A stretch of DNA of 26,147 bases from Escherichia coli (GTDB lineage Bacteria; Pseudomonadota; Gammaproteobacteria; Enterobacterales; Enterobacteriaceae): assembly GCF_003334355.1 (NCBI RefSeq), contig NZ_QOWP01000043.1, one strand, 5' to 3'. The notes under the pieces are model-generated. The model ran no database searches. It saw only the letters and a program-made list of their open reading frames with translations, and was not told the origin of the DNA. The first letter of the stretch is position 1, and each line of letters starts with the position of its first letter. Shown here piece by piece: positions 20,682-21,796 of this stretch. The position numbers were made by a program, and so were the translations under genes.

Positions 20682-21796
20682 TGGTACTTCCTCGCTTTAA
20701 AAAAGAGTGCACTTCGTAAGTGCCCTTATATAAATAACGAGTTTGGTCAACCAATTTTTTGACATGTATCACAAATTTGAATAGATGTATTACATCAACT
20801 ATCTTTTATTGCACCAACGTCATTGATATATGTCGCCTGAAGTCAGTTCCGGGAATGAGTCTGATCTCAAGACTGGCCCAGTCCGGGCGTTGATTGGTGC
20901 TGAGGAGCATATCGCATCTCATCATAATGTCGTATCTCCTGGGGTGTTATACAAGATATCGTTGTTGGTGACCTGGGAGAGGAATTGAGTTCTATTAAAC
21001 CGTCAACTATGCCGGATACATACTGGATTACACTGCAGGCACGCCTTATGAGAGAACGTGCCGCAGTGACGGGTTAATTATCTGAAAGAATTTGTGAGGC
21101 TGTATCGGTTACTCATTGATTTGATAGTTTTTTCTCTCGGGAGAATAATAGATATTTAATCCATTAACGGAAACCAGCCAGTTCCTTTCGATGCCTGAAT
21201 TTGATCCCATAGTTTATCCGGAATGGTTAATTCATGAACAAGTTGTGTTATCGTTCATGAGAAGCATAACGTAAAGGGAAAAGCTCGATTAGACGGCAGA
21301 ATTTGTCAGGGGTTATGAACGAAATTCATAAATCTGTTTGAGTGTTGCGATGGGTAGTGCAAGTTCGATATCTCCGCAATTTACAGTCCGATGAAGGAAA
21401 ATGAATATCCATAAAAAATATATTGGTTTATCCTGGCATATATACCTATTTCGACGTATTTCCAATAGTTTTAATTAAAGGCAGGTCATTGTTATTCACT
21501 CTGAATAGTGAATTATTCACTGTCCGCAGAGTAAGAAATATAACTTAGGTATCTATTTAATGACTTGCACAAAAAGCTAAATTTTCCCCCATAAATAAAA
21601 ATATAATCCCGCGCCCAACCACCTGATGAGTGGCTACAGGCACTGGATATATTAGGTGGCGGTGCACTTTCTTACATAAAGGTATTTCCTTTTCTGCGGA
21701 AAAGGAAATCGGGAAATCCCCGGTTTTTCTGACAAGCAGACGCCATTATTTGTGTCTGCCTATGTTCGTTAATTCGTTCATCAGGAAATTATCTCA

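Follow-up and report, generated by a model that had tools for sequence, protein, structure and literature searches.

The fdeC locus and the half-site cluster

We examined the DNA upstream of fdeC, the gene named eaeH in K-12, in a 26,147-nucleotide stretch of Escherichia coli DNA that is referred to here as the window. Between positions 20300 and 21900 the window is 100% identical to E. coli ATCC 8739. The FdeC adhesin is widely conserved in E. coli and is a vaccine candidate; its expression is tightly shut off in vitro. The upstream neighbour of fdeC is ykgR (20580-20681, - strand), and the gap between the two genes spans 1115 bp at 37.7% GC, compared to a window average of 50%. GC content reaches its local minimum, 29%, in the 200-bp stretch 21400-21599, which contains a cluster of GTGAAT/ATTCAC half-sites; so low a value at the cluster is as expected for H-NS-bound DNA. 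A sequence-only reading had described the region as AT-rich, ORF-free and about 1.1 kb long. Its length and composition were confirmed, but the region also holds an oxidoreductase pseudogene remnant and a deletion junction. The features of the locus and the cluster are as follows:

21156-21245, - strand: remnant of an NADH:flavin oxidoreductase pseudogene, 90 bp, alongside the deletion junction at ~21247
21492-21500, + strand: direct repeat copy 1, TTATTCACT, holding the first half-site
21493-21507: second palindrome, TATTCA-CTC-TGAATA, read from the sequence and absent from the sequence-only reading
21501-21512, unstranded: 12-bp spacer, variable, holding the centre half-site (G/A)TGAAT and TGAATA
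21507-21521, unstranded: palindrome AGTGAAT-T-ATTCACT, 15 bp, perfect only in the ATCC 8739/K-12-type allele
21513-21521, + strand: direct repeat copy 2, TTATTCACT, 21 bp downstream of copy 1, holding the third half-site
21797-26053, + strand: fdeC (eaeH), encoding an inverse autotransporter adhesin of 1418 aa, intact in the window

In strains of phylogroups B2 and E, among others, an island of ~6.5 kb lies between ykgR and fdeC and carries genes for an oxidoreductase, a hydrolase, two LysR regulators and two aldo/keto reductases. The island is deleted in ATCC 8739 and K-12, with a junction at ~21247, and only the 90-bp remnant is left. Therefore, 21247-21796 corresponds to the 565-bp spacer that ancestrally separated fdeC from a divergently transcribed aldo/keto reductase gene, and both strains have kept the promoter region of the lost reductase in full. 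This 551-bp stretch is carried by 5021 of 5426 complete E. coli genomes, with identities of 93.5-100%, and in each case it adjoins fdeC. The spacer also contains the palindrome TTATGAA-CGAAA-TTCATAA (21313-21331, 7-bp arms), located ~85 bp from the former aldo/keto reductase start. A T-N11-A core of the kind it carries is typical of LysR-family sites, and it may be a relic operator of the deleted reductase operon.

At the opposite end of fdeC, the sequence from 26062 to 26147, which begins ~10 bp past the stop codon, is presumably an IS1 terminal sequence. This IS1 end is missing from the otherwise identical ATCC 8739 record NZ_CP022959.1, in which fdeC is followed by its terminator hairpin and then by a convergent AraC-type gene. 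In that IS1-free record ATTATTCACTG occurs a third time, 60 bp past the fdeC stop codon, and we considered whether the repeats are insertion scars flanking the gene. At this place other strains read TTTACTG or TTTATTG, which makes the third copy strain-specific, and it is located on the terminator hairpin's flank; we regard it as a coincidence.

In K-12, the eaeH locus is a transcriptionally silent protein-occupancy domain (PMC4191405), and the title of Easton et al. (2014) names repression by H-NS and temperature in the regulation of fdeC. Our search of the literature on fdeC/eaeH regulation returned only these two as named regulators. The accessible literature on fdeC/eaeH, searched with H-NS, CRP, SELEX, ChIP-exo and site sequences, contained no mapped site and no binding data.

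The three half-sites of the cluster were reported correctly by the sequence-only reading: ATTCAC at 21494-21499, GTGAAT at 21508-21513 and ATTCAC at 21515-21520. Its estimate of ~280 bp for their distance upstream of fdeC agrees with the 276-303 bp that we measured from the ATG (21797). Each half-site extends to a 7-mer (ATTCACT 21494-21500, AGTGAAT 21507-21513 and ATTCACT 21515-21521). What had escaped that reading is a direct repeat, TTATTCACT-N12-TTATTCACT (21492-21521), composed of two 9-bp copies and a 12-bp spacer with a period of 21 bp. In most strains copy 1 reads ATTATTCACT, and the architecture of the majority allele is ATTATTCACT-N11-ATTATTCACT. Since a period of 21 bp amounts to two helical turns, both copies lie on the same face of the DNA.

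The frequency with which such patterns arise by chance was estimated with dinucleotide-preserving shuffles of the window and of the AT-rich region. A cluster of three hexamers in mixed orientation within 30 bp appeared in 34% of the window shuffles and in 3% of those of the AT-rich region, whereas the 7-mer version appeared in 0.5% and 0.2%, respectively. The direct-repeat pattern, with up to 3 mismatches allowed, is expected 0.01 times per window. Taken whole, the half-site cluster is real and rarer than shuffling predicts, although shuffles are a weak null where DNA can duplicate locally. The palindrome taken singly is another matter. Four perfect 7-1-7 or 7-0-7 palindromes occur in the window against ~3 expected by a back-of-envelope calculation, and with a count so near expectation one palindrome with arms of 7 bp is unremarkable. 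Two longer perfect palindromes of the window lie at 20228-20245 and 19767-19783. One of the pair, GTTATGTTATAACATAAC, is upstream of ykgM, where one of the four lies, and resembles a Zur box, in line with the zinc regulation of the ribosomal protein paralogues ykgM-ykgO; the other, TCTGATTATTAATCAGA, is near ykgL/ykgO.

These frequencies bear on whether the repeats do anything at all. They may be chance or mutational products, arising by duplication or slippage in an AT-rich, H-NS-coated spacer, with their conservation reflecting low divergence and luck. We consider such a non-functional origin a serious possibility, nearly as likely as the explanation that we prefer. The 34% of window shuffles with a hexamer cluster and the near-chance number of palindromes are in its favour, as is the abundance of the 9-mer and its one-mismatch variants in the window (14 observed, mostly within genes, against 5.3 expected). 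On the other side, the remaining bases of the two 21-bp units are unrelated to one another, and the repeats are therefore not a recent tandem duplication.

Conservation of the repeats and of the palindrome

Conservation was assessed in three comparison sets: complete genomes chosen across the identity range; all of the true orthologues from outside E. coli proper (Escherichia sp. E1V33, E. whittamii and the divergent strain E69); and ~115 metagenome contigs recruited with an invariant 20-mer. In a search beyond Escherichia, true fdeC orthologues proved to be confined to E. coli and the cryptic clades, and all 32 loci recovered elsewhere were paralogues at 34-51% identity, none of which carried the repeat pattern.

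The palindrome GTGAAT-T-ATTCAC, which the sequence-only reading had reported at 13 bp together with a third half-site, is indeed in the sequence. However, the G at 21508 that makes it perfect is derived: the position is A in E1V33, in E. whittamii and in 47 of 59 haplotypes, where the half-site reads ATGAAT. The exact 76-mer of ATCC 8739 is present in 1862 of ~5050 E. coli records with the region, K-12 included (in NZ_CP011343.2 it occupies 313168-313243), and the inner TGAAT-T-ATTCA is kept in nearly all standard E. coli haplotypes.

The repeats present a different picture. Among 61 distinct haplotypes of E. coli and the cryptic clades, none of the 18 repeat positions showed a shared polymorphism (one found in at least two haplotypes), as opposed to 15% of the positions in the region as a whole, 22% of those in its left flank and, in the spacer between the repeats, 2 of 12, namely 21503 (G/T) and 21508 (G/A). 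Copy 2 was invariant in the 61 haplotypes save for one singleton. The probability of finding no shared polymorphism in the repeats is roughly 0.01-0.05, and this invariance has little power alone because most E. coli sequences are 94-100% identical here. It nonetheless counts against a non-functional origin, given the background of 15-22%. Outside E. coli proper, copy 1 of E. whittamii has a substitution (ATGCACT).

A rare divergent lineage, comprising metagenome contig L139 and the genomes 6EVA, wlxctx60 and GF4-3, is more informative. Over the 154 bp upstream of 21564 it is 56% identical to the window, as against 97% downstream, and the two longest identical runs in those 154 bp, as read in 6EVA, are TTATTCACT (21492-21500) and TATTCACTG (21514-21522). 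Both 6EVA and GF4-3 keep both repeat copies, whereas the centre half-site has been lost and reads AAAATA. The 41 bp from copy 2 to 21564 are ~39% identical in this lineage and have kept their length to within 1 bp. Retention of all 18 repeat positions at 56% identity has a naive probability of ~3e-5, which counts against the view that the repeats have no function, as both 9-mers are fully kept between flanks that are 56% (upstream) and ~39% (downstream) identical. The lineage also has a different deletion scar upstream of fdeC, with a remnant of a LysR C-terminus. Overall, the repeats accompany fdeC in three left-hand contexts: next to the aldo/keto reductase genes, at the ykgP-type deletion and beside the LysR-gene remnant.

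Other observations count against a required function. A 21-bp deletion between them, which leaves a single copy, was found in 5 of ~125 sampled sequences (~4%). One of these is the complete genome CP66-6, in which fdeC is still annotated as intact. In addition, all half-sites are absent from the E69 lineage (L010, L061 and L078), where clear homology starts at 21564. The element, or at least its two-copy form, can therefore be lost. Both observations also suit a non-functional origin, the deletion allele by demonstrating slippage between the repeats and the E69 lineage by doing without the site. The gene upstream of fdeC in the E69 lineage (L010, E. coli E69, 730-2160) encodes a glutamate decarboxylase (gadA/gadB-like) in place of ykgR or an aldo/keto reductase, and the fdeC cassette from 21564 onward therefore sits elsewhere in that lineage.

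The alignments thus place the evolutionary footprint on the same-orientation repeats and not on the dyad, which argues against a palindromic operator and fits a tandem site on one face of the DNA. We judge the evidence for constraint on the repeats, as far as these comparisons can indicate it, to be moderate. The original proposal was that GTGAAT-T-ATTCAC, with the third half-site, is an operator bound by a dimeric regulator of fdeC, which in our version of it is of helix-turn-helix type, and conservation of the palindrome upstream of fdeC orthologues had been put forward as its check. This conservation was not found, given the A at 21508 in the outgroups, the AAAATA of 6EVA and GF4-3 and the loss of the half-sites in E69. 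The perfect 15-bp palindrome of the window strain and K-12 and the widely kept inner TGAAT-T-ATTCA favour the proposal. Against these stand the derived G, the loss of the centre half-site where the outer copies are kept, and the expectation of one 7-1-7 palindrome by chance at this window size. We now consider a palindromic operator very improbable. What survives of the proposal is that this spot appears to be under constraint and could plausibly be a binding site for control of fdeC; its palindromic, dimer-binding form is unsupported by conservation.

Promoter and leader candidates downstream of the repeats

The following features lie between the repeats and the fdeC start codon:

21564-21583, + strand: invariant 20-mer, CTTGCACAAAAAGCTAAATT, marking the left-hand limit of what all fdeC lineages share
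21602-21607, + strand: TATAAT, a perfect hexamer 18-19 bp past the invariant block, present in all lineages, candidate fdeC -10
21614-21796, + strand: candidate structured fdeC leader, 183 nt, from a predicted fold

The 20-mer CTTGCACAAAAAGCTAAATT is identical in all six lineages aligned, E69 included, and the conserved control region of fdeC thus appears to begin downstream of the palindrome, at 21564. The repeats are ~65-70 bp upstream of this promoter-like block. The 20-mer has one mismatch to the MarA/SoxS/Rob box consensus; 0.52 such matches are expected per window, and since the match is not significant alone we treat it as a lead and not as a finding. Activator-dependent promoters in which a MarA/SoxS/Rob box overlaps the -35 have the same orientation and spacing as CTTGCACAAAAAGCTAAATT-TATAAT. 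No good -35 is present for the TATAAT at 21602-21607. Judging from these sequence features, 21564-21607 is a candidate activator-dependent core promoter of fdeC, and from the invariant block and the TATAAT we infer a transcription start at ~21614. If transcription does start near this position, the repeats are centred at approximately -118 and -97.

A second promoter candidate overlaps the repeats themselves. The TTCACT of copy 2 could serve as a -35 that is followed, after 17 bp, by TATAAC (21539-21544) as a -10, for a match of 9 of 12 to the sigma-70 consensus, and the 6EVA lineage has TTCACT-N16-TATAGT at the same place. The repeats could thus be part of an upstream fdeC promoter or, alternatively, a control-region relic from the divergently transcribed aldo/keto reductase operon, which this strain has lost. 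In most phylogroups the 565-bp divergent spacer does have an aldo/keto reductase at its left, with two LysR genes nearby. However, a promoter scan made no call at TTCACT-N17-TATAAC because the -10 lacks the final T, and this -10 candidate is polymorphic, with E. whittamii reading TAGAAC. The relic version has to contend with a distance of 260-290 bp between the repeats and the reductase start codon, and with the fact that two lineages kept the repeats after different deletions had removed their reductase genes. Both versions leave the equal conservation of the second copy, 21 bp upstream, unexplained, and we think it quite unlikely that either accounts for the repeats.

The predicted fold of the leader has a minimum free energy of -60.6 kcal/mol (z = -3.41), and 2 of 200 shuffles folded as well. 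Hairpins are predicted at 21684-21709, 21711-21727 and 21737-21760. Two adjacent leader hairpins followed by the U-tract 21724-21732 form a terminator-like arrangement ~65 nt upstream of the ATG. The U-tract is also predicted to pair with the Shine-Dalgarno region (21781-21788), and the AUG is likewise predicted to be paired. A single compensatory base-pair change in E69 supports the 21737-21760 hairpin, and strain 631 carries the 21711-21727 hairpin in flipped form. On the strength of this modelled structure, the candidate leader could act as an attenuator, a translational block or a small RNA. We also considered an RNA thermometer and rejected it, as the predicted Shine-Dalgarno pairing was not looser in silico from 25 to 45 °C. 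A search of 21200-21900 against Rfam returned no family, even at E-values up to 5. In the window as a whole the only Rfam family above its gathering threshold was IS009, with a full-length match of 202 bits at 11050-11249 on the + strand. Among the metagenome haplotypes, L115 has a 30-nt deletion within 21671-21704 of the candidate leader.

Candidate regulators and a model for the repeats

The segment 21478-21536 was scanned, in both its ATCC 8739 and its majority alleles, for 49 consensus strings from the literature, which are not RegulonDB matrices, with 2000 first-order Markov sequences derived from the AT-rich region as the null. No consensus of this panel was significant in the segment after 49 tests. 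The best raw p-values were 0.026 for ArgR (majority allele), 0.065 for a generic LytTR tandem, 0.12 for Lrp and 0.14 for the DnaA box. The sequence-only reading had been unable to assign the site to a known regulon, and we reach the same result, as none of the 49 regulator strings rose above the AT-rich background. The lack of a match among them, like the lack of literature on the site, is in keeping with an absence of function.

Several regulators (CRP, ArgR, IclR, Cra/GalR and CreB) share words with the fdeC site but fail on spacing. The ARG box contains TGAAT-N4-ATTCA in an 18-bp box that is usually paired; here the gap is 1 or 3 bp, and the best 18-mer has 3-4 mismatches. The CRP site, TGTGA-N6-TCACA, is approached by GTGA-N5-TCAC, which is one base short, and the best match has 4 mismatches in 10. 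The IclR consensus matches at 8 of 14 positions, and Cra/GalR sites have centres of even length, unlike the fdeC palindrome. As judged from these consensus strings, the misfits of CRP, ArgR, Cra/GalR and IclR weigh further against a palindromic operator. CreB is said to recognise a cre-tag, TTCAC-N6-TTCAC, and the identical TTCAC pentamer is repeated in the same orientation at the fdeC site. However, the spacing here is N16 and not N6, no second pentamer lies 11 bp from either copy, and the site has 3-4 mismatches to the consensus (p of at least 0.3); we rejected CreB.

One architectural parallel is with the LytTR-type response regulators (AgrA, ComE and E. coli BtsR and YpdB), which bind direct repeats of 9-10 bp placed 11-13 bp apart. 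The fdeC site fits this format exactly, as 9+12+9 bp, or 10+11+10 in the majority allele, and on the - strand it reads ACAGTGAAT-N12-AGAGTGAAT. The sequence match is less good, with 3 mismatches in 16 to the generic consensus, which is not significant (p = 0.065). The BtsR and YpdB sites did not match, at 7 of 16 and 10 of 20 mismatches, respectively. LytTR sites usually abut the promoter, whereas the fdeC repeats are placed at about -97 and -118 from the predicted start.

The EcpR (MatA) system offers a second parallel. Binding data reportedly place EcpR boxes, TTCCT-N17-TTCCT, upstream of ecpR, and such a pair occupies 19082-19108 of the window (- strand), ahead of the ecpR start by ~355-380 bp; it agrees with the reported EcpR autoregulatory boxes. 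Both systems have two repeats with a pentamer core in the same orientation, about two helical turns apart, and each is found in AT-rich, H-NS-silenced DNA at a long distance upstream of an adhesin gene. The word and the spacer differ, TTCAC-N16-TTCAC at fdeC as opposed to TTCCT-N17-TTCCT, with 3 of the 5 core bases in common. We did not retain the fdeC repeats as EcpR boxes.

Each TTATTCACT also matches the DnaA box, TTWTNCACA, at 8 of 9 positions, with T for A at position 9, a position that is contacted by DnaA. One-mismatch matches of this kind are common, with a chance of 0.14 per 59 bp of AT-rich DNA, and the fdeC site differs from DnaA sites in having no replication-control or known DnaA-regulon context. 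The AT-rich sequence upstream of fdeC, with its minimum of GC at the cluster, is like that of H-NS-silenced adhesin promoters in general. However, the cluster is unlike the high-affinity H-NS motif TCGATAAATT, from which it differs by at least 4 mismatches, and general coating by H-NS would leave the base-specific conservation of two 9-mers unexplained. A ykgA-like AraC-type gene was considered as a local regulator of fdeC. Its arrangement points elsewhere: its transcription converges with that of fdeC and diverges from that of another aldo/keto reductase gene, and it more likely serves the latter.

We tentatively favour, at somewhat less than even confidence, the explanation that the repeats are a tandem, same-face binding site for a protein with a long-range effect on the H-NS-silenced fdeC promoter. 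Any functional unit would be the pair of 9-10-bp words in the same orientation, (A)TTATTCACT-N12-(A)TTATTCACT, in the AT-richest, H-NS-silenced part of the region. The two copies would dock two subunits, or two dimers, of a DNA-binding protein, which would modulate fdeC transcription from afar, most likely by antagonizing or reinforcing H-NS silencing. The palindromic look would then be a by-product of a variable spacer that happens to hold the inverted word, and a recent A-to-G change would have perfected the palindrome in the A/K-12-type allele. The distance of the repeats from the predicted promoter (-97/-118) counts against this explanation. In sum, we regard the repeats as a real, weakly supported candidate cis-element, and the palindromic-operator reading as unsupported.

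If the repeats are inert, the analysis still corrects the first reading of this DNA, in that its eye-catching palindrome is an artefact of a recent SNP. The natural alleles, namely G/A at 21508, the 21-bp deletion and the E69-type loss, are ready-made tests, and a conserved short element is a concrete probe for the specific regulator of fdeC. A bolder and rather unlikely extension of the tandem-site explanation is that an anti-silencing regulator with LytTR-, LuxR- or AraC-like tandem binding docks on the repeats and that these, together with 21564-21607 and a leader that hides the ribosome-binding site, constitute a switch for fdeC. If true, such a switch would keep FdeC off in culture and turn it on above 37 °C or on contact with the host.
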